Positions 49,168 through 64,000 of a stretch of DNA of 64,000 nucleotides are shown one piece after another. Position 1 is the first letter of the stretch. Every line of letters begins with the position of its first letter. The notes below the pieces were generated by a model. It searched no databases, had not been told where the DNA came from, and saw only the letters and a list, made by a program, of their open reading frames with translations. Made by a program: the position numbers and the translations under genes. The stretch lies in assembly GCF_056712565.1 (NCBI RefSeq), contig NZ_CM160072.1, one strand, 5' to 3'.

Positions 49168-50625
49168 TTAATCGTTGCTCTCCTGTATCATATTCGTCGG
49201 CGTGCTAAACAGAAAACGGGTAGCAAAGGCCAATACCACGATGATCGCGACACAAGCCAACGTCCACTCTCCCATCTGAGAAAAGAATCGCTGGTAAGCG
49301 GCAATTGCCATACCGCTAATTTGCGACTCTGTCGTCTGCTGTGCCACGACGCCTGCCAGCCAGTTGGCGACTGCGCCTGTTGCCAGCATATAAATACCGG
49401 TTAATACGCCAGACATTTTCAGACGCGTGATTTGCGCAATCGCCACCGGGTCAATAAAGAGTTCAGCAAAGCCCATTAGCGCCAGCCCGGATATCATCAC
49501 GCCCATTGACGCTTGACCGCCAGCCGCTGCATGTCGGGCATCAAATGCCAGCAACATAAAGCCACAAGCCATCAGCAGTAAGCCAAAGGCAAACTTCAGC
49601 CAGACGCGCAATGCTGAATTGCCGCGGCTTTCTGGCGACGCCAGCCAGGCCAGAACAACCCCAGCGAGCATCACCGCAATGGCATTCACCGACTGGAATA
49701 GTGCTGTAGGTACTTCAATATTGAATGCCTGACGATTCACAAAGCGATCGATAAACAAGCTGATGGTACTGCCGCCCTGTTGTGCCAGTACCCAGAACAA
49801 CGTCCCGACAAACATCAACAATACAATTTGCCAAAGAGCACGGCGGTGTTCGGGGAATTTGATCATCATGCGGGCAATGATTTGTGCGGCAATGAGGCAA
49901 ACGATCGCCAGCAAATATCCGGACCAGTCGTTCTCCAGCAGCAGGGTAAAAAATACTGGGGCTAAACAGAGCATCACCACTAACCAGCTCCATACTGGTA
50001 AGGCAAATTTGACGCTTGTGAGCGCTTTTTTATCCATACTACGCGTGGACTGGAAATGACGATGACCACTTAAGAAAATCAACAAACCGATAAACATGCC
50101 GCCTCCCGCAAGGGCAAAGCCAACATGCCATCCATACCACTGAGCAGCCAGGCCGCAGGCGATGGGCGCGGCGATAGAACCGATATTGCCCGCAGCATAC
50201 AGCAGCGAAAAACCGCCATCACGTCGATGATCGTTCTCGTCGTAGAGCTCGCCAAGCAAACAGCTGATGTTTGATTTGAATAAACCGTAGCCACAAATAA
50301 TGATTGCCAGCGCCAGATACAGGCTAAAGGTTGAATTTGTATCAATGCCCAGCACCACATGGCCAAGGGTCATTAACAGCGCGCCGGCAATCACTGCAGT
50401 GCGGTTGCCGAGCAGGCGGTCGGCAAGCCAGCCGCCGAGAATAGGGGTAACGTAAACCAGAGAAGCATATGCGCTGAACAGGCTGATGGCATGGTTATCA
50501 TCAAAACCAAGCTGATGGGTGAGATAGAGAATGAGTAAGGCACGCATGCCGTAAAAACTGAAGTACTCCCAGATTTGGATCGCCACGATATAGTATATCG
50601 CGCGCGGCTGTGAGGGTGTTTTCAT
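49168..50625 (-). CDS. dtpC: Di/tripeptide permease DtpC (YjdL, POT family)
   Basis: 485-aa polytopic membrane [34 protein letters not shown]... Confidence 0.92.
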
Positions 50626-50683
50626 GTGTTCTCCTTATGAGCAAAAAAGGGAAGTGGCAAGCCACTTCCCTTGTACGAGCTAA

Positions 50684-52831
50684 TTATTTTTTGCTTTCTT
50701 CTTTCAATACCTTAACGGTATAGCGGCCATCAGCCTGACGGTATGCACCGTGAATATCGGTTTCAAAGCCCGGATAGTGAGCGCCGATTTCACACAGCAT
50801 CTGCAGGAACTCCAGAACCGGACGGCTTTCTTCGGTGATCATTTCACCCGGCATTACCAGAGGAACTCCCGGCGGATACGGAAGGATCATATTGGCGTTA
50901 ATACGACCTACCATTTCGTCGAGGTAAACTTCTTCGGTCATACCGTGCAGCTCTTTCTGGAACGCAGCATACGGAGTCATTACCATAGTCGGCAGAACTT
51001 CAAATGCGCGATACATCAGATCCGGCAGATTGTGGTGAACAATCAGTTTGTGGATATTCTGAGCCAGTTCCTGAATACGCATGTTTTCATAGAATTCAGG
51101 ATCTTCACGATACAGAGACGGCAGCATGTTTTTCACACGCAGGTTCAGATCGAACGCACGTTTGAAGTCAGTCAGAGCACGCAGCAGGCTCAGTGCTTTG
51201 GTCTTATCGATACCGATGCTGAACAGGAACAGCAGGTTATACGGACCGGTTTTCTCAACAACGATGCCATGTTCGTCGAGGTATTTCGCCACGATGCTGG
51301 CCGGAATACCAAAGTCGCTCATGGTGCCGTCTTTTTCCATCCCCGGAGTCAGCAGGGTGACTTTGATCGGGTCAAGATACATGTGCTCGTTATCGATGTT
51401 TTTGAAGCCGTGCCAGGTGCTGTCAGAACGCAGCGGCCAGCATTCAGTCGTATCGATATGATCCGGCTGCCATACATCAAAGAACCAGCCATCAGATTCC
51501 GTTCTCAGACGTTTGATCTCTTTACGGAATTTGATCGCACGTTCAATGGAACCATTGATCAGACGTTTACCTGCATTGCCTTTCATCATCGCCGCAGCGG
51601 TTTCAGTGGACGCCACGATACCGTAGTGCGGAGAGGTGGTGGTGTGCATCATGTAGGCTTCGTTAAAGGTTTCTTCGTTTACGTCACCTTTAACGTGGAT
51701 CATGGAAGCCTGAGAGAACGCCGCCAGCAGTTTGTGAGTAGACTGGGTTTCGTAAATCACTTTCCCTTCTACACGGCCACCGCTCATACCGCATTTACCT
51801 TCGTAAATCGGTGAGAAGTTGGTGTAAGGCACCCACGCGGAGTCAAAGTGGATGGATTTCACATCCAGTGTTTTCTTGATGAAGTCGGTGTTGTACAGCA
51901 GACCATCATAGGTAGAGTTGGTAATTACAGCATGTACCGGCCAGGTTGCGTTTGGTGTTTCTTTCACGCGCTTAGCAATGGTAGCGTGCTGGAATTCACT
52001 CTGTGGGATACCACCAAGAATACCGTAAGCGTTACGGGTCGGGCGGAAATAGATTGGCGTAACATCGCTCATCATCATCAGGTGGGTCAGCGATTTGTGG
52101 CAGTTACGGTCAATCAGAATGGTGCTGCCTGCCGGAGCAGAGTACATACCAACAATTTTGTTCGCAGTGGAAGTACCGTTGGTCACCATGTAGCTGCGGT
52201 CTGCGTTAAAGACGCGAGCGATATACTGTTCTGCTTCTTTGTGTGGACCACTGTGATCCAGCAGAGAACCCAATTCAGATACTGAAATGGAAATATCAGA
52301 TTTCATGGTGTTCGGACCAAAGAAATCATAGAACAGGCTACCTACCGGGCTTTTCTGGAATGCAGTACCACCCATGTGACCAGGAGTACAGAAAGTATAT
52401 TTACCTTCACGAACATATTTAAACAGTGCTTTGGTCAGCGGAGGCAGAATAGTGTTGATATATTCGTCAGTGGTCTGCTTGATCTTGTTAGCAATATCAT
52501 CAGCAGCACCCAGCGCATATTCAAAGAAGCTAATCTGTAAACGCAGGTCATTCAGGCTTACATCGAGAGTGGAATACGTATTAGCGAACGCGTACAACGG
52601 CAGGTTCTCGTTCATTTTGCTAATTTCTTCGCACAGCTCGAGATTATATTTATCCCAGTCAAAAATAACGCCGCACAGACGCGCATTGTTTTCGATCAGT
52701 TTTAATAAGTCGTCACGGTCGTTCGGGTAAACAATCTGGAAGTTCAGACGTTCAAGCGCGCGATGAAGTTCACGGATGGGTTCTTCTTTAAAATAAACCC
52801 CCATGTGATTCAATATTGCAATAACGTTCAT
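50684..52831 (-). CDS. cadA: Inducible lysine decarboxylase CadA
   Basis: ORF 50684..52870; start at MNVIAILNHMGVYF (cat 52829-52831), 715 aa. Confidence 0.95.
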   Translation of the reverse strand: MNVIAILNHMGVYFKEEPIRELHRALERLNFQIVYPNDRDDLLKLIENNARLCGVIFDWDKYNLELCEEISKMNENLPLYAFANTYSTLDVSLNDLRLQISFFEYALGAADDIANKIKQTTDEYINTILPPLTKALFKYVREGKYTFCTPGHMGGTAFQKSPVGSLFYDFFGPNTMKSDISISVSELGSLLDHSGPHKEAEQYIARVFNADRSYMVTNGTSTANKIVGMYSAPAGSTILIDRNCHKSLTHLMMMSDVTPIYFRPTRNAYGILGGIPQSEFQHATIAKRVKETPNATWPVHAVITNSTYDGLLYNTDFIKKTLDVKSIHFDSAWVPYTNFSPIYEGKCGMSGGRVEGKVIYETQSTHKLLAAFSQASMIHVKGDVNEETFNEAYMMHTTTSPHYGIVASTETAAAMMKGNAGKRLINGSIERAIKFRKEIKRLRTESDGWFFDVWQPDHIDTTECWPLRSDSTWHGFKNIDNEHMYLDPIKVTLLTPGMEKDGTMSDFGIPASIVAKYLDEHGIVVEKTGPYNLLFLFSIGIDKTKALSLLRALTDFKRAFDLNLRVKNMLPSLYREDPEFYENMRIQELAQNIHKLIVHHNLPDLMYRAFEVLPTMVMTPYAAFQKELHGMTEEVYLDEMVGRINANMILPYPPGVPLVMPGEMITEESRPVLEFLQMLCEIGAHYPGFETDIHGAYRQADGRYTVKVLKEESKK

Positions 52832-52910
52832 AGTCATATCTCCAGGTAAAAAAGGCCCCTCCCAACACATGGGACAAAATGAAAGGAGGAGCCTCGGAAA
52901 ATACTTTTAA

Positions 52911-54245
52911 TTAATGTGCGTTAGACGCTGTGTGGTTATCCATTGAGTGGCTCTGGCGCTCGTGCATTTTGCGAGCGTAGAACATCAGGATAATCAGGCT
53001 GACGATGAAGGTACCTGCCAGCTCGAAGGAGCTTGCGCCCATCAGCGCGATGAAGCAGAACACGCAACCCAGTACAGAGCAGATCAGGCTGACAAAGTTG
53101 CGGATGTTAACGCCTTCAAAACGAATCAGGTCAACGCAAGAGTAGAAGTACGGCAGCATAGTCAGCAGTACTGCGATACCGGTCAGTTCACCGAACAGGT
53201 CAGAGGCTTTACCACCGGCAGAGTTCATCAGAGTGATGAGGATCATCAGGGCAGTCATTTTCACTGCAGCCAGCAGCAGACCTTTTTTCGGAATACCGTT
53301 GCTGTCGACTTCACCATAAACTTTCGGGAAGTTACCGTCGTTAGCGGCACGTACACCTGCCTGGCCTACCAACATCATCCAGGAGCCCAGAGAAGTCAGG
53401 CACGCAAAGGCGGTGAATGCAGAAACCAGTGGCGCAGCCCAGTTACCGAGGATAGTTGAAGCACTGATTGCAAACGGAGCACCGGAAGCCGCCATTACAG
53501 AAGACGGATACATACCGGAAAGCACCTGAGTCGCAGCGATGTAAACAATACCTGCTAAACCAGTACCCAGCATGGTTGCCAGCGGAACGGTACGTTTCGG
53601 GTTTTTAACCATACCAGTACTTACTGCTGCGGATTCAACACCCACGAAGGCCCACAGGCAGAGCAGAATACTTTTAATGATCGCATGACCATCAGTGGTA
53701 TCCGCAGTATTCCAGTTAGCTGCATAAGTTGCTGCATCAAACCAATGCCAGCCAACAATAGCAGTCATCACCACAGGAATAAGAACCAGCACCAGACCAA
53801 TCGTGGTTAAACGGCTTACCCAGGTACCGCCGAGCATATTCACAAAGGTAAATACCCAGACGATAGCAATACAGGCGATACCCGCCGGAACAGGATCATT
53901 TAATACTGGGAAGAAGGTGGAAAGATAAGATACAGCGGTAATACCAATTGCCAGGTTACCAATCCAGTTAGCATGGTAATAAAGAACACCTGTCTGAAAA
54001 CCAAATGCAGGGGAAATTTCTCCGGCATACGCAATTGGGCCACCTTGTTGCGGGTTTTTTGTTGCCAGTCGGGCATATACATATGCCAGCGACATTGCAC
54101 CAATAATAGAGATAATCCAACCCCAGATAGCAATACCACCGATACTTGCTAGGTTCGCAGGTAATAATGCAATACCGCTCCCCATCATATTACCGGCAAC
54201 AACACCGGTACAGGCAAATAGCCCGATCTTCTTGGCAGAACTCAT
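52911..54245 (-). CDS. cadB: Lysine:cadaverine antiporter CadB
   Basis: 444-aa APC-family membrane ORF. Confidence 0.94.
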   Translation of the reverse strand: MSSAKKIGLFACTGVVAGNMMGSGIALLPANLASIGGIAIWGWIISIIGAMSLAYVYARLATKNPQQGGPIAYAGEISPAFGFQTGVLYYHANWIGNLAIGITAVSYLSTFFPVLNDPVPAGIACIAIVWVFTFVNMLGGTWVSRLTTIGLVLVLIPVVMTAIVGWHWFDAATYAANWNTADTTDGHAIIKSILLCLWAFVGVESAAVSTGMVKNPKRTVPLATMLGTGLAGIVYIAATQVLSGMYPSSVMAASGAPFAISASTILGNWAAPLVSAFTAFACLTSLGSWMMLVGQAGVRAANDGNFPKVYGEVDSNGIPKKGLLLAAVKMTALMILITLMNSAGGKASDLFGELTGIAVLLTMLPYFYSCVDLIRFEGVNIRNFVSLICSVLGCVFCFIALMGASSFELAGTFIVSLIILMFYARKMHERQSHSMDNHTASNAH

Positions 54246-54610
54246 GCTCTTCTCCTAATTTCATTTTTGAATTTGGAGTCCGGGTCATGATGTATAACTA
54301 TTTCCTGACCAGACCAAACTGGCGCTAAGATTACTCACGAAAAAAGGATTAATCCTAAAGATTAGGTGAAATAACACAAAAGTTTCTGTAAGTGAGAACT
54401 TGAGGTTTTTTATTAACACATCAGGATCGCAAGTTGATATCATGAAAAGATAAACATTCAATGTTTACAATGCATTGCGTGACATTCTCTGGTTAAATTT
54501 ATGTAATAAAAATTATGCGGCAAATAAATTGCCGCAACATATTATACCAACGGGAACATACAAAAACTCAACAACAAATATTCCCGAGCATGAATCAACC
54601 CGGGAGTTAC
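54246..54610 (-). promoter_or_regulatory. cadBA promoter region (Pcad)
   Basis: 365-bp AT-rich intergenic region between cadC stop and cadB start; CadC-binding sites not mapped here. Confidence 0.55.
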
Positions 54611-56149
54611 TTATTCTGAAGCGAGAAATTTGTCGAGATAAGGTACAACATAAGGAACAGAAGTCTGGAATATACCATTTTCAATCCAGTAAAGGGTGTT
54701 TGCCCCTGGGCGTAAATTAAAGGCGGTGAGATATGCATCAGCTGCTTCCCGGTTCATCCCCTTCATTTCATAAACCTTGCCAAGCAACACATAATTTAGC
54801 CAGGACATTTCAAGATCAATGCCGGTATTTATCGCCTGATAAGACTCATCTGTTTTACCTTTTACCAGGGCACTGACCGCTTTTATTTGATATATAATGG
54901 ACAGGTTGTTCAATTCCGGCAGTGTAACAATGTTATCTATTTCTGTGTTCAGTGCTGCTAATTGTTTTTCGTCTAAAGGATGTTGAGAATGGCGCACGAT
55001 ATCAACTAATGCTTTTTCTGCTCTCGCGTAGGTAAATTCTGGGGATGATTGAACAATCTCACCTAATAATTCACTGGCACGATCCAATGATTTATCATCA
55101 CCATGCAGTAAATAATCATGTGCCTGATAAAAATTAGTTAATAACGCACCACGATGCGGCAAAATTTGCTGGAGCATCTCCTGCATTCGTTGTGGCCACG
55201 GTTGGTTTAACGCTTTTGATAAACTCTGGAGCAAATCATTTTGAATCGCCAGCTGATTACCGTTAGTGATGACATAACGTTTATCCAGCATGGTTGAACC
55301 ATCTGCATTGTCTACCAATTTTACCGACATAAAGCATTGTTGAGCACGGTATTGGCGCTGATTAACAAACGCAATAGATAATGTTTTACCGGAACTGCTC
55401 GGTTCATCAATGTTGTAGTTGATTTTGTCATGCACCATAAAGGTGGAGAAGGTGTTAAGTGATGTCGCCACCAAATCACCCACGCCTATCGCGTAAGAGA
55501 GCTGATACGGAGAACTCCAGCTGTTACAACTCTTATTAACCATATTAATGTCAATATCGCGTGGATTGAGCAAAATGCGCGATTTACTCATAGGAAGACG
55601 TGTTTCAAGACTTGAAAACGCTACCAGTGCGACACAGATACCTAACGACAACAGGAAAAAAAACCATACCCAAAAGGTAGTGAATCGTTTGCTTTTAACT
55701 GGGGATTGTTCAGGTGGCGTTGTGGTGTTTTGAATGTTAAGACTGTGGGAGGGAGAATCTGTGGCAGGAACCGCCTCTGGTATAGGGGGAGGCGAAGATA
55801 GCATTATTTCCTCTCCCTCTTCTTCGCTGTACCAGATAACCGGCACCATTAATTTATAGCCGCGCTTTGGTACAGTAGCGATATAGACAGGACTATCTTC
55901 ATCATTATCTTTTAATGACTTACGTAGTTCTGAGATACTCTGCGTCACAACGTGATTGGTGACAATACTTCTCTTCCAGACATTATCGATAAGTTCATCC
56001 CTGCTAAGTACTTCGCCACTGTGTTGAGCAAAGAAAACCAGAAGATCGATTAATCTCGGCTCAAGGGTAAGTTGACGCCCATTGCGGCTAATTTGGTTTA
56101 TGGACGGAGTAACAAGCCATTCGCCAACGCGAACTACAGGTTGTTGCAT
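54611..56149 (-). CDS. cadC: Membrane-integrated ToxR-like activator CadC
   Basis: 512-aa ORF; N-terminal winged-helix domain, one TM, periplasmic sensor. Confidence 0.94.
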   Translation of the reverse strand: MQQPVVRVGEWLVTPSINQISRNGRQLTLEPRLIDLLVFFAQHSGEVLSRDELIDNVWKRSIVTNHVVTQSISELRKSLKDNDEDSPVYIATVPKRGYKLMVPVIWYSEEEGEEIMLSSPPPIPEAVPATDSPSHSLNIQNTTTPPEQSPVKSKRFTTFWVWFFFLLSLGICVALVAFSSLETRLPMSKSRILLNPRDIDINMVNKSCNSWSSPYQLSYAIGVGDLVATSLNTFSTFMVHDKINYNIDEPSSSGKTLSIAFVNQRQYRAQQCFMSVKLVDNADGSTMLDKRYVITNGNQLAIQNDLLQSLSKALNQPWPQRMQEMLQQILPHRGALLTNFYQAHDYLLHGDDKSLDRASELLGEIVQSSPEFTYARAEKALVDIVRHSQHPLDEKQLAALNTEIDNIVTLPELNNLSIIYQIKAVSALVKGKTDESYQAINTGIDLEMSWLNYVLLGKVYEMKGMNREAADAYLTAFNLRPGANTLYWIENGIFQTSVPYVVPYLDKFLASE

Positions 56150-56720
56150 AATAGAAACTCATTCGAAAAGGGAATGATGCAATGATAATTGCCATAACCT
56201 ATTTTTTCCATCTATAGATGGGTTTATTTACATATTATTGGTGAATGTAGGACGTTATTTTTACCCGCCATAAACTTCTTGATTACATAGTATTACGAAA
56301 GGATTTTACTGAGAACCAGAAGTAATTTTCCTTACCATCAAAATTCATCATCTTTGCCAAAGAAAAATGTTCAGAAAATAATCCATGAAAAATTGTCCGG
56401 AGCGCTTACTATTTTAATGGATTGTTAGTCTTTGCATGAGCAAACGGACTGATACATTTCTCTTTGTTCTCATTCAGAAAATCTCATCAGTTGGCGTTCT
56501 GCCCGATGTTGTGCTTTATGGGTGCGTTACGCTCCTGATGACGTCATTTGACGTTCAACAGCATCACGGGGCCGCACGACATTTCACGTCAGTCAGCGCT
56601 ATAGCTCAGAAACAAATTTTCCCGAATTGGGATATGCCCGCAAATTGCTGGTGATGTGGGGAGAATCTGGTTGAGTTCGGTAGAATTGATTTGGCGGCAG
56701 GACGCTTAAATCGTGGCGTC

Positions 56721-56756
56721 CTGAAACGAAAAACGGACCTCCGTGGAGGTCCGTTT
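56721..56756 (-). terminator. Rho-independent terminator native to the tRNA-Phe locus
   Basis: Minus-strand AAACGGACCTCC-AC-GGAGGTCCGTTT followed by TTTTTCGTTT; lies just 3' of the tRNA-Phe 3'-end copy. Confidence 0.65.
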
Positions 56757-56765
56757 ATATGAATT

Positions 56766-56787
56766 TGGTGCCGGACTCGGAATCGAA
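56766..56787 (-). repeat. Degenerate copy of the 3' end of tRNA-Phe: att-site direct repeat marking the island boundary
   Basis: tggtgccggactcggaatcgaa is the reverse complement of the last 23 nt of E. coli tRNA-Phe (TTCGATTCCGAGTCCGGGCACCA) with one C missing; no upstream tRNA body follows. Confidence 0.75.
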
Positions 56788-56980
56788 TATTTTATTTATC
56801 ATATTGATATTGATGTGATTTATTTGGTTTGGTGAAAAATGTACCCTCTTTTGTACCCTCAGTCCCTTTTGCTGTGAAAAAGGAATCAAACCCGGGAGTT
56901 GGAAGATGAGGTGAAAAGGGGGACGCATAAAGGGATTCACCTTAACAGCGTACTACTGTTAAGGTGGGAGGACCATCTCA

Positions 56981-57544
56981 TTATCCCCACCGGTCCCATC
57001 TCACCAGGTTGTTGATGATAATTTTATTACTAAATTTGCAGGGCGGCCTGGTTTTGTAATCCCGGCTCAGTCCTCTGAAGGCATTGATCTCCCCCCGCTC
57101 AAACAGCTCATCCTTATTCTGGTGCAGTTGTTTAAATGTGCTCAGAATGTTCGCTTCGCTGATTTCCGGAAAATTATCATATTCCAGTGACCTGAACCCT
57201 GTATCACGTGCCTGTGCATCCATTAAGGAAAACATCCCGGAACGCTGCATCAGGTTACGCCAGATTTCGCGCTCAAGATTCCGGGTAATGGCTTTCATTG
57301 CTGTTTCTGGTTTCTCCATCATCCAGCAACCACAGCGAAAATTCTGTTTCATCGCCCAGTCCGGGGCGGCTTTACCGCCAATATTTTCCGTCAGTGCTGA
57401 GATTTCTGTCAGTTGCCGGATAAGCGTGTCGATTTGCAGTAGTGTACTCTTTCGTACAGCCAGGATGTGTCTGATACTTGTGGAACAGATAACGGCTGTA
57501 TGCCCGTTGACCGCGTTCGGGTGGGGGATTGTGATATCTGACAT
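56981..57544 (-). CDS. Hypothetical island-terminal protein (possibly DUF4942-like)
   Basis: 187-aa ORF, last gene before the island boundary; family assignment uncertain. Confidence 0.45.
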   Translation of the reverse strand: MSDITIPHPNAVNGHTAVICSTSIRHILAVRKSTLLQIDTLIRQLTEISALTENIGGKAAPDWAMKQNFRCGCWMMEKPETAMKAITRNLEREIWRNLMQRSGMFSLMDAQARDTGFRSLEYDNFPEISEANILSTFKQLHQNKDELFERGEINAFRGLSRDYKTRPPCKFSNKIIINNLVRWDRWG

Positions 57545-57628
57545 TATGAGGTTTCCTTTCTGTTTATAAACGAAAACGCCAGCCCTGTTCAGGCTGGCGT
57601 CAGGAGAATGGAGTCTGGTGAGTGAGAT

Positions 57629-58051
57629 TCACCGGTTCTGGTGCATAAGTTGCAGTTGGTGCAGGGTACGGATATCCTCCCTGGCCTGTTCAATACAGGG
57701 CAGCAGTGCTGCCGAATCCGTTTTATCCTCATCGTTGTCGAAAATAATTCCGGACCCGCAGTCGATATTGTCCTGCAGCCACGCAATGAGGATATCCAGC
57801 GCTGTTTCAGTGGTTAATGGCATCACGCTCTGTATCACTGTATTGTCTTCCGGCAACTGATGAGGGCTGGCATAAGTTGCCGGTGTTTCGGTAGAGTCAC
57901 GGTCATCCACCACGCGGAGTGAATCACCGTTTTCAGCGGCCTTATTAATCAGTTCAGCGAGATTAACACCATCAATGTCAACGACAATTCGCCCCATATT
58001 CAGTGCCTGTACGTTAACGCTGTCGGCTTCCGGCGTCAGGGAAAGTTTCAT
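57629..58051 (-). CDS. YeeW-like protein
   Basis: 140-aa ORF immediately downstream of, and overlapping by 4 nt, the CbtA-like toxin gene. Confidence 0.6.
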   Translation of the reverse strand: MKLSLTPEADSVNVQALNMGRIVVDIDGVNLAELINKAAENGDSLRVVDDRDSTETPATYASPHQLPEDNTVIQSVMPLTTETALDILIAWLQDNIDCGSGIIFDNDEDKTDSAALLPCIEQAREDIRTLHQLQLMHQNR

Positions 58052-58425
58052 TGTTTCACCTCCGGGTGCTTACCCAGGATAATATTATTTACCGTTCTGT
58101 AATTGTCGCGGGTCATCAGGCCGGTCGCCCTGCGAGCCCGGAGGATATCAATACTGTTTATTAACTGAGAACGGGTACAGGCGCTGAATCCCGGCTGGTC
58201 GGTACGTACCAGTGCGTATTTTTCAACGAGAAAGTTCACCGCATCGCACAGTGAAATGCCTGCCTCAATATGCTGCTCAATCACACGTTCATCAGCGAAC
58301 GGTGTGTCATTCAGCGTAAGGCCGTAGTGCTGATCCAGCAGTCGGGTGAGCAGTGTCTGCCAGATTTCAACCGGAGACGGGCGTGAACTGGCCGCCTGCC
58401 CGGGTAATACAGGTAATGTTTTCAT
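58048..58425 (-). CDS. CbtA-family toxin (YeeV/YkfI/YpjF-like, type IV TA)
   Basis: 125-aa ORF MKTLPVLPGQAASSRPSPVEIWQTLLTRLLDQHYGLTLNDTPFADERVI... Confidence 0.8.
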   Translation of the reverse strand: MKTLPVLPGQAASSRPSPVEIWQTLLTRLLDQHYGLTLNDTPFADERVIEQHIEAGISLCDAVNFLVEKYALVRTDQPGFSACTRSQLINSIDILRARRATGLMTRDNYRTVNNIILGKHPEVKQ

Positions 58426-58513
58426 ACTGAAGATTTTCCTGATATGCAGAGATGAAAAATGGAAAAGTGGCGTGGTGAAAGCACCAGGCCGAGCAGAAGG
58501 TTATTCTGGAGAG

Positions 58514-58882
58514 TTACTTTTTCGTTTCGGGCGTCGGATAAACAGCCATATAAACGTAGCCACAACTGCCGAGGGTGTCGGCTTCGCAGGTCAGCCCTTT
58601 TGCATACAGCGTGACGGTATGCTGATGGCGGGGATTCAGTTCACCGCTGGTGAGCATGAGTTCCAGTTGTTTCATCAGCAGCGGAAAGGCCTGGTCCAGG
58701 TGGTACGAATCCGCGTCGCTGAACCGCCCTCTGATACCGGCGCGGTCGGCAAGGTAATGCAACCGGTTGCCTTCCTGTACCAGACGGGCACCAAAACAGG
58801 GCGTCACGGTGCAGGGCAGTCCCCACCAGGTACGGTCGTTATTGTCGTCGGGAAGCGTTGTCCCGGGGAGTGTGTCTGACAC
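58514..58882 (-). CDS. CbeA-family antitoxin (YeeU/YafW/YfjZ-like)
   Basis: 122-aa ORF MSDTLPGTTLPDDNNDRTWWGLPCTVTPCFGARLVQEGNRLHYLADRAGI..., immediately upstream of the toxin. Confidence 0.8.
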   Translation of the reverse strand: MSDTLPGTTLPDDNNDRTWWGLPCTVTPCFGARLVQEGNRLHYLADRAGIRGRFSDADSYHLDQAFPLLMKQLELMLTSGELNPRHQHTVTLYAKGLTCEADTLGSCGYVYMAVYPTPETKK

Positions 58883-58961
58883 GATAAAATCCTCACAGAA
58901 AATTGGTTAAGAATGGTCCGGTGGTGGCGATAATTCTGCTCTTCTGAATGCCCTTCCAGAC

Positions 58962-59183
58962 TCAGTTCAGGGTGACGCTCATCAGCCGGACATACGGACC
59001 AAAACTGTCCTTCCGGCGTTCTGCAAACACGGCCAGCACACAGGGAATATCCTGTACTTCACGGCCGGTATATGTATCCGTGCTACCGTGCCAGCGGTAT
59101 TTACCGGTACAGAACGGAAAAAGACGGGATGCAGGATGCTGACGGTGAATACGCATGGCTTCACCACGGGTGATGATTTTCAT
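58962..59183 (-). CDS. DUF987 protein (YeeT-like)
   Basis: 73-aa ORF in the conserved position between the RadC-like and CbeA genes. Confidence 0.65.
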   Translation of the reverse strand: MKIITRGEAMRIHRQHPASRLFPFCTGKYRWHGSTDTYTGREVQDIPCVLAVFAERRKDSFGPYVRLMSVTLN

Positions 59184-59269
59184 GAGAATAGTCCTCCTGA
59201 ATGTGAAAGTAAGAAACAGCTGAGAAAGAGAAACTGAAGTGATATGAAGGTGATTGTGACGGTGACGGG

Positions 59270-59746
59270 TTAAAGCAGACCGTGTTCCGCAAAGGAGAAA
59301 ACCTGGCTGCCACCGACTATCAGATGGTCCGGCACCCGGATATCCACCAGGCCCAGTGCCTGTACCAGACGTTCCGTGATAAGGCGGTCTGCCTTGCTGG
59401 GTGTGACTTCACCGGACGGGTGATTGTGTGCCAGCACCACAGCAGCGGCATTGTGATACAGGGCGCGTTTAATCACTTCCCGGGGATGGACTTCCGTGCG
59501 GTTGATGGTGCCGGTGAAGAGGGTTTCACCGGCAATCAGCTGATTCTGGTTGTTCAGATACAGCACCCGGAACTCTTCCCGCTCCAGTCCCGCCATGTTC
59601 AGAATCAGCCATTCTCGTGCCGCACGGGTGGAGGTGAAGGCCACGCCGGGTTCATGAAGATGGCGGTCCAGGGTTTTCAGGGCCCGTTGAATGAGGCTGC
59701 GCTCACCGGGCGTCATTTCTCCGGGCAGAAAGGAAATCTGTTGCAT
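59270..59746 (-). CDS. RadC-like JAB-domain protein (YeeS/YkfG/YfjY-like)
   Basis: 158-aa ORF with JAMM/MPN motif HNHPSGEVTPSKAD. Confidence 0.8.
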   Translation of the reverse strand: MQQISFLPGEMTPGERSLIQRALKTLDRHLHEPGVAFTSTRAAREWLILNMAGLEREEFRVLYLNNQNQLIAGETLFTGTINRTEVHPREVIKRALYHNAAAVVLAHNHPSGEVTPSKADRLITERLVQALGLVDIRVPDHLIVGGSQVFSFAEHGLL

Positions 59747-59760
59747 TGTTCCGGCCCCTT

Positions 59761-60240
59761 TCAGTCAATGATGCGCATAATGGCGCTGCATTCCGGATGC
59801 TGCAGGGCGTAATCCCGCAGCCGGTAATAATGGACCGTCATGGCATAACATTCCGTACGACAGGCATGATGGCTGTACGTCATCAGACAGGCGGCAATAC
59901 CGGCAGCTTCCGGACTCATTTCAGCGCGGTTACCGTTCATGGCATTGAACAGTACCCATGTTTCGTCATCATCGTCATCCGGTTCAGGTGCCATAAATGC
60001 GCCACCGTTGTTCAGGGTGTACAGATTCCAGATGCCCCCGCAGTAGTCTTCGCACAGACGGTCCATCCAGCCGAAGACACGGGGCTCCAGGGTCACCCAC
60101 TGTGGAATGAGGCCAAAATGCTGCGGCCAGAAGCTGATACGTTGTTCATCAGGGACGGGAGTAGCAACCAGTTGGGGCTGGTTATTCCCTGGTGCTGTGG
60201 CTGAAGAAAGAGCAGTTGTGTTCTGAGAAACGATTTTCAT
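59761..60240 (-). CDS. Antirestriction protein (ArdB/KlcA-like)
   Basis: ORF 59761..60312; start at MKIVSQNTT (cat 60238-60240); ISFWPQHFGLIPQWVTLEP...GGIWNLYTLNNGGAFMAPE. Confidence 0.75.
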   Translation of the reverse strand: MKIVSQNTTALSSATAPGNNQPQLVATPVPDEQRISFWPQHFGLIPQWVTLEPRVFGWMDRLCEDYCGGIWNLYTLNNGGAFMAPEPDDDDDETWVLFNAMNGNRAEMSPEAAGIAACLMTYSHHACRTECYAMTVHYYRLRDYALQHPECSAIMRIID

Positions 60241-60505
60241 GAGTGAAATCCTTACAATGTGTATAAATGAGAGGAAATAAAGGCCGGGGGCTGACAACAT
60301 CACGTTCATCACTGACCGTGAGACCCGGCAATATCAGGGATGAATGATATTCGGCTGAAATTCCGGACAGCCGTACGCGTAACCGTTCCGGTCACAGACG
60401 GATGGCCAGAAGATGCCATTGCCTGTACTCAGTCTGCACAGACTGAGTTCTCCGGGGCGTCGGGTGATTCTGGTGCCTGAATCACGCCTTCAGGGACAGA
60501 TTGCA

Positions 60506-61324
60506 TCAGCGCAGGCTCTCCAGTAGCGTTTCTGCCATCACCCACAATGCGCGATTGAGCTTAATGCCGGTGTCGATGCTGTGAATGGCACGGGTGTGGA
60601 TACGTTTTCCTCTGGCACTGCGACCGGAAATTCCGCCTTTTAGCATATTCTCCTGGATGGTCTGATAAGTACTCCACAGGTCCTTACCGTAATCCTCCCG
60701 GCGTCGTGGCGTCAGAATGTCGGCGGTGGTGACGGGCTGATGTTCGTCACCATAACGGTAAGTCAGTGCCGCCTGTGCCAGCGCCTGGCGTGTCGGTGGC
60801 GGCAGGACCAGCGACTGCATGGCATCACGCTTCTCCTCTATCCGGTCAAACACGCCCACCACCTCGTAAGCCCCTTCAATAACTTTCTCCACCACATTTC
60901 CCCGGTGTGGAACACGCAATTCTCCCAGAGACTGACCGCAGACCAGTCCATTGGTACAAATGGCACGAAAATATCCGGGTAACATCTGGTAGCTGGATGA
61001 ACCGTCATGGGAGTTGAGCAGAATAATTTCAGGCACATGCTGACCGGTTATCTGTCCGGCCCGCCGCAGACGCAGCATATGTTTGGTATATTCCCGGCGG
61101 CTCTGGTCGCGCACACGGGTCTGGCAGGCGAAGAACGGCTGAAAGCCTTCCCGCTGCAGATTTTCCAGGACGGTGATGGTGGGAATGTACGCATACCGTT
61201 CACTGCGGGAGGTGTGCCGGTCTTCTCCAAAAATACTCGGGACGTGGTACATCAGTTCTTCGCGTGTCAGTGGGCGCTCCCGACGGATCTGATTTACATG
61301 ACCAAAACGACTGGCTAATTGCAT
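60506..61324 (-). CDS. DUF932-family protein (YfjQ/YafZ-like)
   Basis: 272-aa ORF; length and position typical of CP4-type islands. Confidence 0.65.
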   Translation of the reverse strand: MQLASRFGHVNQIRRERPLTREELMYHVPSIFGEDRHTSRSERYAYIPTITVLENLQREGFQPFFACQTRVRDQSRREYTKHMLRLRRAGQITGQHVPEIILLNSHDGSSSYQMLPGYFRAICTNGLVCGQSLGELRVPHRGNVVEKVIEGAYEVVGVFDRIEEKRDAMQSLVLPPPTRQALAQAALTYRYGDEHQPVTTADILTPRRREDYGKDLWSTYQTIQENMLKGGISGRSARGKRIHTRAIHSIDTGIKLNRALWVMAETLLESLR

Positions 61325-61413
61325 ACTTTGCTCCTTATGAATGAATTAGCGGTATAAACGAAAAGGCCGCGTCTCCCGGAGAAGACGCGGCCTGATGGAT
61401 GAAATGAAGACGT

Positions 61414-61647
61414 TTATTGCCTGAGAATTCCCTCACTGGCGAGATACGAATTTAGCTGTTTTCCGGCATCAGGTTCAAAATTCCAGCACCGCCAGCGTAG
61501 CTGCCCTTCGGCATTGCGGATAACCAGCCGGAAATGCGTTCCCTGGTCATCTTCAATAAGCACATTGCGGTAAGCTGTTGTGATGACAACCGCCTGTTCG
61601 CGTGAGAAAGGGCCTTCGGGCAATAAAACAGGGCGACAGTCCAACAT
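61414..61647 (-). CDS. DUF905-like small protein
   Basis: 77-aa [62 protein letters not shown]... Confidence 0.55.
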
Positions 61648-61652
61648 ACCGG

Positions 61653-62330
61653 CTATTTTCCGATAAATTCAACGCTGGCGCCGGTGGCATTACCGTCAGC
61701 ACCAACCGTGACGGTCACTTTGTCGTACGCACGGTCTTCAGGATTGAATACTTCAAACTCAACCTTATTGCCTTTTACTTCGTAAGAGCCAAAATCAGCG
61801 GTTTCTGTTGTTTCCTCGTCGTATTTCCGGGCGTATGCCTGTCGGGCAGCCTGCAGTACGGAGTCTTTATTAATAGTGGTCGTCTGTTTCGGGGAAAAAA
61901 CGGCAAGTGATGTGACAAATTTCGGACAGACCTTCAGCATATCACCGCGGGTGAATTCCATTCGTACACCAAATGCCTGTAAAACGGACACATCACGCTC
62001 TGCTATGGAGTGAACGGCTTTTTTGACCATTTCCGACGCCTGTTCGGCTTCCACCTCAACAGCCCTGAATCCCGTCTGCTGATTACACATTTGTGATGTG
62101 GGGATCAGGTTACCGTTAATACTGATACGGCTGCCCAGGAGCGTCTGTACGCCATTCGGGCATCCCTGCATCAGGCCGGTAATACCAATCGTGCCATTTT
62201 TCAGCATTACCAGCGCCTGACCATCTTCCGTCATGGTCTGGCACCAGCCGTTTTTGACAGCCCAGTTACCGGCGGAGGCGGAGAAGGATGCAACAGTGAA
62301 AAGCAGGGGAAAAAGAGTTCTGGTATTCAT
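61653..62330 (-). CDS. Putative secreted/periplasmic protein of unknown function
   Basis: ORF 61653..62438; start at [20 protein letters not shown] (cat 62328-62330), a signal peptide. Confidence 0.55.
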
Positions 62331-62480
62331 GACTGACCTCTGAAATGAACGTACGGTGTTATTGATAATGATGGAAGGTATGCAGTGACTGTTCAGGAAA
62401 TGACGTAATAGCCATATATTTAGTTTTCTGTTCAACATATTGTCTCCATACCTGTCGGGACGGCTTTGGCAGGCCGGCGA

Positions 62481-63161
62481 TCACAGGTTAAAGGTGTTGA
62501 TAAGTTTATGGATGAAAGAGAAATGTGGCAGGGCGGAGATAAAACGCTCTTCAGCGACCAGATTGTGGATGTGGCCTCTCCGTTCAAACCGTTCTGATGT
62601 CAGGCTGACTGATTTGATATCTGCCAGGGGAAAGACCTGCAGTTTTCCCTTCTGTAACGCGATCAGATACCAGCTTCCGCTGTAATAAATGAGCCGGCAG
62701 GGCTCCAGTGACGTATACCATCGCTCAGTCATCAGCGAGATGTGGATACACTGTTTTATTGCCAGGATGAGTTGCGAGAAACACTCGGGGAACGTTGCAG
62801 TGATATCCGGCGCCGGTAGCCAGATAAGGCAGGGAGAGGGCTCCTGGTTGTCGGTAAGACAGGTTATCAGTCGTCCGTTCCGGAGCGGAAGTATCCGTGC
62901 GATCCCGGTATTCTGTATAAAAGAAAGCATTTCAGGGATCGCACACGGGCTGCTCTGTCGTCTGAGGCTGTACCTGCCATTTCTGTACTCTAAATCCAGG
63001 TGAACCAGACGCTGATGAAAATCGCGCTGTAAAGTACGTTCTGTAACGCCAAATTCATCTGACAGTGTCTTTAGTGACAGAGATTCTCCGGCCATCAGTC
63101 GGCTGATAATGAGTGATAAGCGAACCGCCAGACGATCATGCCGGGAACGATCATCAGACAT
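62481..63161 (-). CDS. HTH + WYL-domain transcriptional regulator (YfjR-like)
   Basis: 226-aa ORF; N-terminal HTH and WYL signature IYYSGSWYLIA. Confidence 0.7.
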   Translation of the reverse strand: MSDDRSRHDRLAVRLSLIISRLMAGESLSLKTLSDEFGVTERTLQRDFHQRLVHLDLEYRNGRYSLRRQSSPCAIPEMLSFIQNTGIARILPLRNGRLITCLTDNQEPSPCLIWLPAPDITATFPECFSQLILAIKQCIHISLMTERWYTSLEPCRLIYYSGSWYLIALQKGKLQVFPLADIKSVSLTSERFERRGHIHNLVAEERFISALPHFSFIHKLINTFNL

Positions 63162-63363
63162 AGATGTGTACTCCGTAAGAAAACATCTTTTATTTCATGA
63201 TGTTATTATGCCTCATGGTGTTGAAAGGATGTGTCGTATCTGAATAATCAGGAATAAAATGCAGCAGAAAAAATATTCCTTTAATTATCTGATTTTTAAT
63301 GATGATTTCATAAAAAGAAGAATACTCGTTAATCCAGCGACACATCCTGTCGGCGTGAGTGTG

Positions 63364-64000
63364 TCAGAACAGACGATCCCACAGTGTTTCCAGCAGGCGG
63401 ATAATGCGGTCCCGGGCTTTACGCAGAAGCTGTAACATCCAGACCGGAAAAGTGAACCGGGCAACGGCGTCGTCAAAACTTTTCCCGATGGCGTCACCAA
63501 AAGTCTGTTGTGCGTGTTTCTGGGCCTGTTCAGAGCGGTTTTCCCCCCGGATATGTGAATAAACCGCACTGGTTGCCTGCGGTGGCAGGGCGTGGATCAT
63601 CAGCGACACAAACGCCGGAAGATTCCAGCCGACAGGCGCAGCAACGGGGAGTACCGGAAATGATGACGGGAACAGGGTTGCCACCCTGGCTGTAACAGTT
63701 GCCAGTGAGAGTTCCTGGTGACGGGATGGGCATTTTTCTGTGGCATTCCATTCTTCAGCAGGAAACACGCGATCGGCATGGCTGAGAACAAACAGAAAAC
63801 GCGAGGGATCTGCACCTTCATTCAGTAAAAACTGATGCATGGCAATATCGGCAGCATACGCACGTTCATCAGCCCGCAGGATCCAGATAATCAGATCCAG
63901 TTCCGGCAGTAACTGACGGTAAATCTCCCGGTATTCCTGATCATGCTGCGGTGTCTCACCAATGCCGGGCAGATCGACCAGCGTCATTCTGCGTTCACCA
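63364..64000 (-). CDS. YeeP/YkfA/YfjP-like GTPase, C-terminal part; 5' end lies beyond the window
   Basis: Minus-strand frame open to the window edge; contains DLPG (G3-like) motif, but the N-terminal P-loop would lie upstream. Confidence 0.6.
   Translation of the reverse strand, partial: GERRMTLVDLPGIGETPQHDQEYREIYRQLLPELDLIIWILRADERAYAADIAMHQFLLNEGADPSRFLFVLSHADRVFPAEEWNATEKCPSRHQELSLATVTARVATLFPSSFPVLPVAAPVGWNLPAFVSLMIHALPPQATSAVYSHIRGENRSEQAQKHAQQTFGDAIGKSFDDAVARFTFPVWMLQLLRKARDRIIRLLETLWDRLF

Follow-up and report, generated by a model that had tools for sequence, protein, structure and literature searches.

What is the 3′ end of a tRNA-Phe gene doing on its own, with no tRNA in front of it, between the cad genes and a block of accessory DNA? 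The question is raised by one short range, positions 56721-56787, of a 64,000-nucleotide stretch of DNA (the window), in which a T-tract, a hairpin, a spacer and the tRNA remnant follow one another. The original prediction, made from the letters alone, saw in the range an att direct repeat left by integrase-mediated insertion at pheU, and placed the intact pheU and the integrase beyond position 64000. The analysis described here comes down firmly on the side of that reading. The remnant is very probably the attR core at the tRNA-distal end of an island of ~63 kb, of the PAI-S88-pheU type, which a P4-type integrase would have inserted into the 3′ end of pheU. The features that meet at this boundary are the following.

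54611..56149, minus strand: cadC, core-genome flank of the pheU locus (open reading frame list and RefSeq annotation of an identical genome)
56721..56756, minus strand: intrinsic-terminator-like hairpin with a T-rich tail, in the resident K-12-type pheU 3′ flank (terminator scan, fold z-score, identity to K-12)
56766..56787, minus strand: probable attR core, 22 nt that copy the 3′-terminal 23 nt of tRNA-Phe (TTCGATTCCGAGTCCGG-CACCA) with one G of the GGG run missing (unique exact match and alignment)
56788..64000, no strand assigned: distal 7.2 kb of the island (the "yee" module), which runs past the window end (RefSeq annotation of a 100%-identical stretch)

The remnant itself is unambiguous. 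TGGTGCCGGACTCGGAATCGAA occurs a single time in the 64-kb window, at 56766-56787, and its reverse complement is the 3′-terminal 23 nt of tRNA-Phe (TTCGATTCCGAGTCCGGGCACCA) less one G of the GGG, such that 22 of 23 nt are present when the remnant is aligned to the intact pheU of either ATCC 11775 or K-12. A chance origin of the 22-mer was considered and ruled out, as none of 100 dinucleotide-preserving shuffles contained a match, even with two mismatches permitted. What survives of the tRNA amounts to half of the T arm (the 3′ half), one strand of the acceptor stem (again the 3′ one) and the CCA end. ARAGORN called no complete cloverleaf or tRNA gene in the 64 kb, and Rfam at the gathering threshold returned no match to a tRNA or any other RNA family across 50000-64000; no tRNA body therefore goes with the remnant, just as had been predicted.

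The position of the remnant was then read against the island-free locus. To its left lie cadA, cadB and cadC, which is the neighbourhood of pheU in K-12, and homology to K-12 continues through cadB, cadC, yjdQ and the hairpin until it stops exactly at 56787, 23 nt into pheU. An alignment to the K-12 cadC-pheU interval had been named as a check, and everything from 56788 to 64000 is absent from K-12 at the pheU locus. On the other side of the island, a three-way alignment found K-12 collinear with the left end of ATCC 11775 from dicD through pheU. The island-free homology is thus broken at the repeat on both sides, with the window breakpoint at 56787/56788. G+C content goes from ~40-45% left of the boundary, where the cad genes lie, to 46-56% within the island, with no sharp shift between them, and composition consequently gives no independent support for it.

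The second copy of the repeat was found in ATCC 11775, where an intact tRNA-Phe(GAA) with the same core lies 63,122 bp from the remnant, inside the ~100 kb within which it had been sought, and adjoins dicD (yjdC), followed by dsbD. DNA foreign to K-12 fills the whole 63,122 bp from the remnant to the integrase/pheU end. A 421-amino acid tyrosine recombinase starts 198 bp past the intact pheU and carries the three expected Pfam domains, Arm-DNA-bind_3 (PF13356, 2e-29), Phage_int_M (PF22022, 1.3e-26) and Phage_integrase (PF00589, 8e-17), with a match to the PHROG 1 integrase at 1.6e-63. Judged by this domain architecture and by its place 3′ of the target tRNA, the recombinase is a P4-type tyrosine integrase, all its domain matches being full-length. 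The intact pheU and the integrase that had been placed past the window end were therefore recovered there in near-identical genomes (ATCC 11775 and S88). No intact pheU adjoins the remnant. With every testable prediction holding, the interpretation of the remnant as an att scar at pheU is well supported, above all by the K-12 breakpoint and by the distal pheU and integrase.

Satellite phage P4, which integrates into leuX, likewise relies on a tyrosine integrase whose N-terminal domain binds arm sites. Its attP holds the 3′ end of the tRNA, and integration regenerates the tRNA while a partial copy stays at the far end. The island in the window differs from P4 in its tRNA target and core, and it is a large cargo island in which no phage structural or replication genes were seen.

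The island could be named. Over window positions 35500-64000 the match to ATCC 11775 is 100% across 28,501 bases, and over 1-35499 it is 99.989% (NZ_CP033092.2; three mismatches and one gap); so close a match marks the window as that strain in a different assembly or as a near relative of it. Many phylogroup-B2 or K1-type E. coli, ATCC 11775 among them, match the window at 100% over a 2.5-kb segment that includes the remnant, and at least 80% of this segment is present in 741 genomes. Counted more broadly, a junction of this type, consisting of island end, remnant and hairpin, is found in about 1,329 of 5,426 complete genomes. In S88 both ends are present, 63,536 bp apart, and the integrase (WP_001218869.1) is the one found in ATCC 11775. 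A review lists PAI-S88-pheU at 64 kb (PMC7545054). Its site and flanks equal those of the window island and, for the end segments that were compared, identity is 99.97% at attR and 100% at attL; in length the two differ by ~0.4 kb (63.5 kb, against 63.1 kb in ATCC 11775). The island is accordingly of the published PAI-S88-pheU type, and the feature is an ordinary one that has already been described. The closest relatives at another site are the GI-pheV islands (PMC11537424), which share the attR core with its 1-nt deletion, a P4-type integrase next to tRNA-Phe, a distal yee module and, in APEC O1, a nearly identical integrase leader. They differ in being inserted at pheV, between yqgA and yghD flanks, and in their other cargo, and their attR adjoins the pheV-type terminator CCCGCC..GGCGGG, whereas that of the window adjoins the GGACCTCC hairpin.

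The missing base proved to be of broader significance than a defect in one copy. The core is 1 nt short in all five pheU junctions sampled (the window, APEC E19035, TW10722, B2.3 and O145 RM8988) and again at pheV in ECO11 and APEC O1, that is, in 7/7 such attR copies. In the diverged islands that carry the short core, each core adjoins the native flank of its own site, be it pheU or pheV. The same sequence, TTCGATTCCGAGTCCGG-CACCA, is printed as the attR of 16 GI-pheV islands, where the repeat is given as 23 bp and imperfect (PMC11537424, Table 1), and for both pheU and pheV a repeat of 22 bp, shifted by 1 nt against K-12, has been reported (PMC6174562). Its occurrence at both loci, and in print, indicates that the deletion belongs to the core copy of the mobile element and did not arise by decay in one strain. 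The C is indeed absent, as first noted, and its absence is now seen as a shared and published attR trait of an island family. Separately, the attR of E. coli KK19-02 (segment ~1000-1040) has lost two Cs (TGGTG--CGGACTC), beside a pheV-type hairpin and an IS110 fragment; this second loss shows that the repeat keeps decaying in some lineages.

The same base allows the crossover to be placed. At attL, the chromosomal GGG is joined to an island-type flank (CACCAAGTTCATATCA), while at attR the GG of the island is joined to the resident flank, which is CACCAAATTCATATAA at pheU and CACCACTA... at pheV. From this exchange of flanks we infer that strand exchange takes place past the GGG run but before the flanks first differ, which would confine it to (G)CACCA, the 5-6 nt that close the tRNA gene, on the assumption that the attP of the free island has GG.

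The hairpin next to the remnant also turned out to have a longer history than expected. It begins 9 nt past the CCA end, and its stem (56756..56731 on the minus strand) reads AAACGGACCTCC-ACGG-AGGTCCGTTT, with 11 pairs, six of them G-C, and a 4-nt loop according to the terminator scan, directly followed by the tail TTCGTTT. A 76-nt RNA stretch that contains it folds at -25.2 kcal/mol (z = -3.8), and none of 200 shuffles folded equally well. The strong minus-strand hairpin and T-tract of the original prediction are therefore real. With a G+C-rich stem-loop, a T-tract and a location just 3′ of a gene, the hairpin has the features of an intrinsic (rho-independent) terminator, and it probably functions as one. 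Further 3′ there is another stem.

56698..56723, minus strand: second inverted repeat, immediately 3′ of the terminator, CAGGACGC-10 nt-GCGTCCTG (8-bp stem by RNAalifold)

This repeat is kept in all copies of the integrase leader. One pair of its 8-bp stem varies, being G-C in the window, G-U in K-12, TW10722 and O145, and A-U in the live integrase leaders. This would fit a conserved stem, although no other pair changes; no T-tract follows the repeat.

Whether the hairpin is the native terminator of pheU has a two-part answer. It does lie in the resident K-12-type flank, which is identical to K-12 including the spacer AATTCATATAA, and in K-12 it trails the intact pheU. In ATCC 11775, where the island has its other end, the spacer behind the intact pheU is the island-type AGTTCATATCA, unlike the K-12-type AATTCATATAA. 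Its origin, on the other hand, does not appear to be native. In APEC O1, the island at pheV places the GGACCTCC hairpin and the leader behind the intact tRNA, and the empty pheV of K-12 and the pheV attR of APEC O1 both have a different hairpin, CCCGCC..GGCGGG. The presence of the GGACCTCC hairpin at the occupied pheV and its absence from the empty one imply that it travels with the integrase module, and an older island appears to have left the copy in the resident flank of pheU, as its integrase-proximal arm. Two features beyond the hairpin bear on this.

56603..56765, minus strand: putative fossil integrase leader, the P′ arm of an older island (pairwise and three-way alignments)
56412..56602, minus strand: P4-type integrase relic with an internal deletion, corresponding to the pseudogene yjdQ of K-12 (tblastn, annotation)

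The two island ends resemble each other over ~250 nt, with near-continuous identity that begins at the tRNA 3′ end, crosses the hairpin, the second inverted repeat and the leader, and reaches the start codon of the integrase. Where the live copy has ATG for this codon, the window has ATA. What follows in the window is a relic of ~11 N-terminal codons fused to ~60 C-terminal codons. In tblastn, the live integrase matches it over residues 1-11, 359-391 and 397-420, in three different frames, with a combined E value of 3e-11. RefSeq genomes list the relic as a frameshifted partial integrase, the K-12 annotation has it as yjdQ, and it is found in 5,249 of the 5,426 complete E. coli genomes (97%). 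K-12 yjdQ (b4654), which lies between cadC and pheU, aligns base for base with 56412-56602 with few substitutions, in equal position and orientation. The difference is that in K-12, an empty site, yjdQ follows an intact pheU, whereas in the window the relic follows the 22-nt attR core alone, because the newer island sits between it and the intact gene. A search for yjdQ in the literature library at hand found no paper.

From these alignments, the best explanation for the resident hairpin, leader and relic is an earlier island with an integrase of the same family, of which they would be the fossil. The GGACCTCC hairpin in the resident flank, taken together with yjdQ, suggests that pheU has been invaded at least twice. 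A decayed far-end repeat of the older island was sought in the interval from the relic to cadC, where the best local score was 6 against a shuffle mean of 6.3, and none is left there. Hybrid flanks were also considered as footprints of past excision and were rejected, since the matches joining tRNA and hairpin at 96.8% are the ordinary attL of an occupied pheV (O157:H7) or pheU (VR50).

Candidate binding sites of the integrase lie in both arms of the island. One pair is found just inside the distal end.

56840..56860, plus strand: two copies of TGTACCCTC, 12 nt apart, candidate arm-type integrase sites (copy count, conservation)

The pair lies 53-74 nt inside the island end. TGTACCCTC occurs exactly twice in the 64 kb, with 0.2 copies expected, and the pair is kept in diverged islands. 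In the live integrase leader (ATCC 11775 segment 7651-7696) there are four GGGTAYA/TRTACCC copies within 46 nt, against a background of 0.23 per kb, and two of these are 12 nt apart in the same orientation. Since the integrase has an arm-DNA-binding domain, the TGTACCCTC/GGGTAYA clusters are plausible candidates for arm-type sites to which it may bind. A comparable case is cited in PMC6174562, a selC island with a pair of GGGGGT-containing repeats close to its two ends; a literature search for the arm sites of she-type or pheV integrases gave nothing usable.

The history that would account for these features can be followed in the sense of the tRNA (the minus strand of the window), where the order would be dicD, intact pheU, the island hairpin and integrase leader, int, ~63 kb of cargo ending in the yee module, the 22-nt core copy, the resident hairpin and fossil leader, the yjdQ relic and cadC. 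Recombination between the attP of the island and the attB in pheU would have rebuilt a complete tRNA gene at attL, and the same event would have joined the imperfect core of the island, with GG for GGG, to the old chromosomal flank at attR. The hairpin now beside the remnant would have been the terminator of pheU before insertion, a role that the island-borne copy behind the intact pheU may have taken over since, and the resident hairpin, leader and relic would be the leftovers of the earlier island.

It is a possibility to be taken seriously, though not the one we expect, that an integrase made the scar elsewhere and that this lineage took over the whole pheU locus, island included, from another E. 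coli through homologous recombination in core genes on either side (cad and dicD-dsbD), with the island immobile ever since. An identical junction is common to many B2 or K1 strains, as the 741 genomes mentioned above attest, the island is rich in IS elements and pseudogenes, and a 1-nt indel between the repeats has been discussed as stabilising (PMC11537424). The integrase open reading frame, however, is intact at 421 amino acids with all three domains, and nothing here separates local integration from import. Import would in any case alter the history of the boundary and leave the identity of attR as it is.

That the short core is mere decay, with one strain losing a base at random next to an ancestral chromosomal hairpin unrelated to mobile elements, is very unlikely. 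Non-functional copies do decay, and KK19-02 has lost a second C, but each of the seven attR copies sampled has this deletion, as do the 16 published GI-pheV islands; moreover, the hairpin and the ~250 nt beyond it are homologous to an island-borne leader that also occurs at pheV, where the terminator of the empty site differs. It is scarcely credible that the 22-mer is no att duplication at all and is what remains of a second complete tRNA-Phe gene, the 5′ part of which was lost to deletion or insertion. The tRNA sequence is indeed cut short and followed by a terminator, yet K-12 has a single pheU here, the homology breaks exactly at the 23-nt block, the same truncation point recurs in diverged islands at two tRNA loci, and the other end of the island has an intact pheU and the integrase.

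A further reading, which takes the older and newer elements together, is somewhat more likely than not. The pheU 3′ flank (hairpin, leader and yjdQ) of essentially all E. coli would be the domesticated integrase-proximal arm of an ancient island, so that pheU itself would be ended by a mobile-element terminator. The arm-type sites of the integrase family would be the conserved GGGTAYA pairs, spaced by 12 nt, of the two island arms, and the ~250 nt of homology between the attL arm and the fossil arm could permit RecA-mediated loss of the island, independent of the integrase. This imperfect direct homology in occupied pheU sites extends far beyond the 22-nt core.

For annotation, the outcome is a named island with a boundary fixed to the base, at 56787/56788. 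The DNA from 56788 to the window end can be treated as accessory DNA of a published pheU island, and that to the left as core genome. The attR scar of a known pheU island and its imperfect repeat were both known before; what is added is only mildly new and concerns the probable crossover position, the apparent mobile-element origin of the terminator and the two successive invasions of pheU that the flank suggests. These refinements are of modest value for the mapping of att sites and island stability, through the family-wide 1-nt-short attR and a crossover near the CCA end, and, to a further modest extent, through a terminator that would move with its integrase module and a species-wide integrase fossil that speaks for repeated use of pheU. 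No new question is opened by them.

Several minor observations were made on the contents of the island. The yee module, as annotated, comprises genes for DUF4942 (truncated), DUF957, DUF5983 (truncated), cbtA, a YeeU-family antitoxin, DUF987, a JAB/RadC-like protein, an antirestriction protein, DUF932, DUF905, a WYL protein and a GTPase. The DUF4942 gene (56984-57544, minus strand) has lost its C-terminus relative to the intact gene of 843-855 nt in TW10722 and B2.3, and the DUF5983 gene beside it (~57854-58051) is annotated as partial. Between DUF957 and DUF4942 there is a terminator-like hairpin (57575-57601, minus strand) of 11 pairs, seven of them G-C, followed by TTCGTTTATA. Deeper in the island, ATCC 11775 (segment 14346-19863) has an Orn/Lys/Arg decarboxylase gene between those of two basic amino acid/polyamine antiporters, bracketed by IS1 copies, a set that echoes the native cadBA just outside the island boundary. 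The ATCC 11775 island also has a Qat anti-phage system, a nucleotide-binding and SLATT pair, and a grp glycyl-radical propanediol microcompartment locus; a literature search for the grp microcompartment in connection with pheU found no paper joining both. Finally, alsC, for the D-allose ABC permease (window ~4959-5939), is a pseudogene with an internal stop according to the ATCC 11775 annotation (segment 29562-30542).
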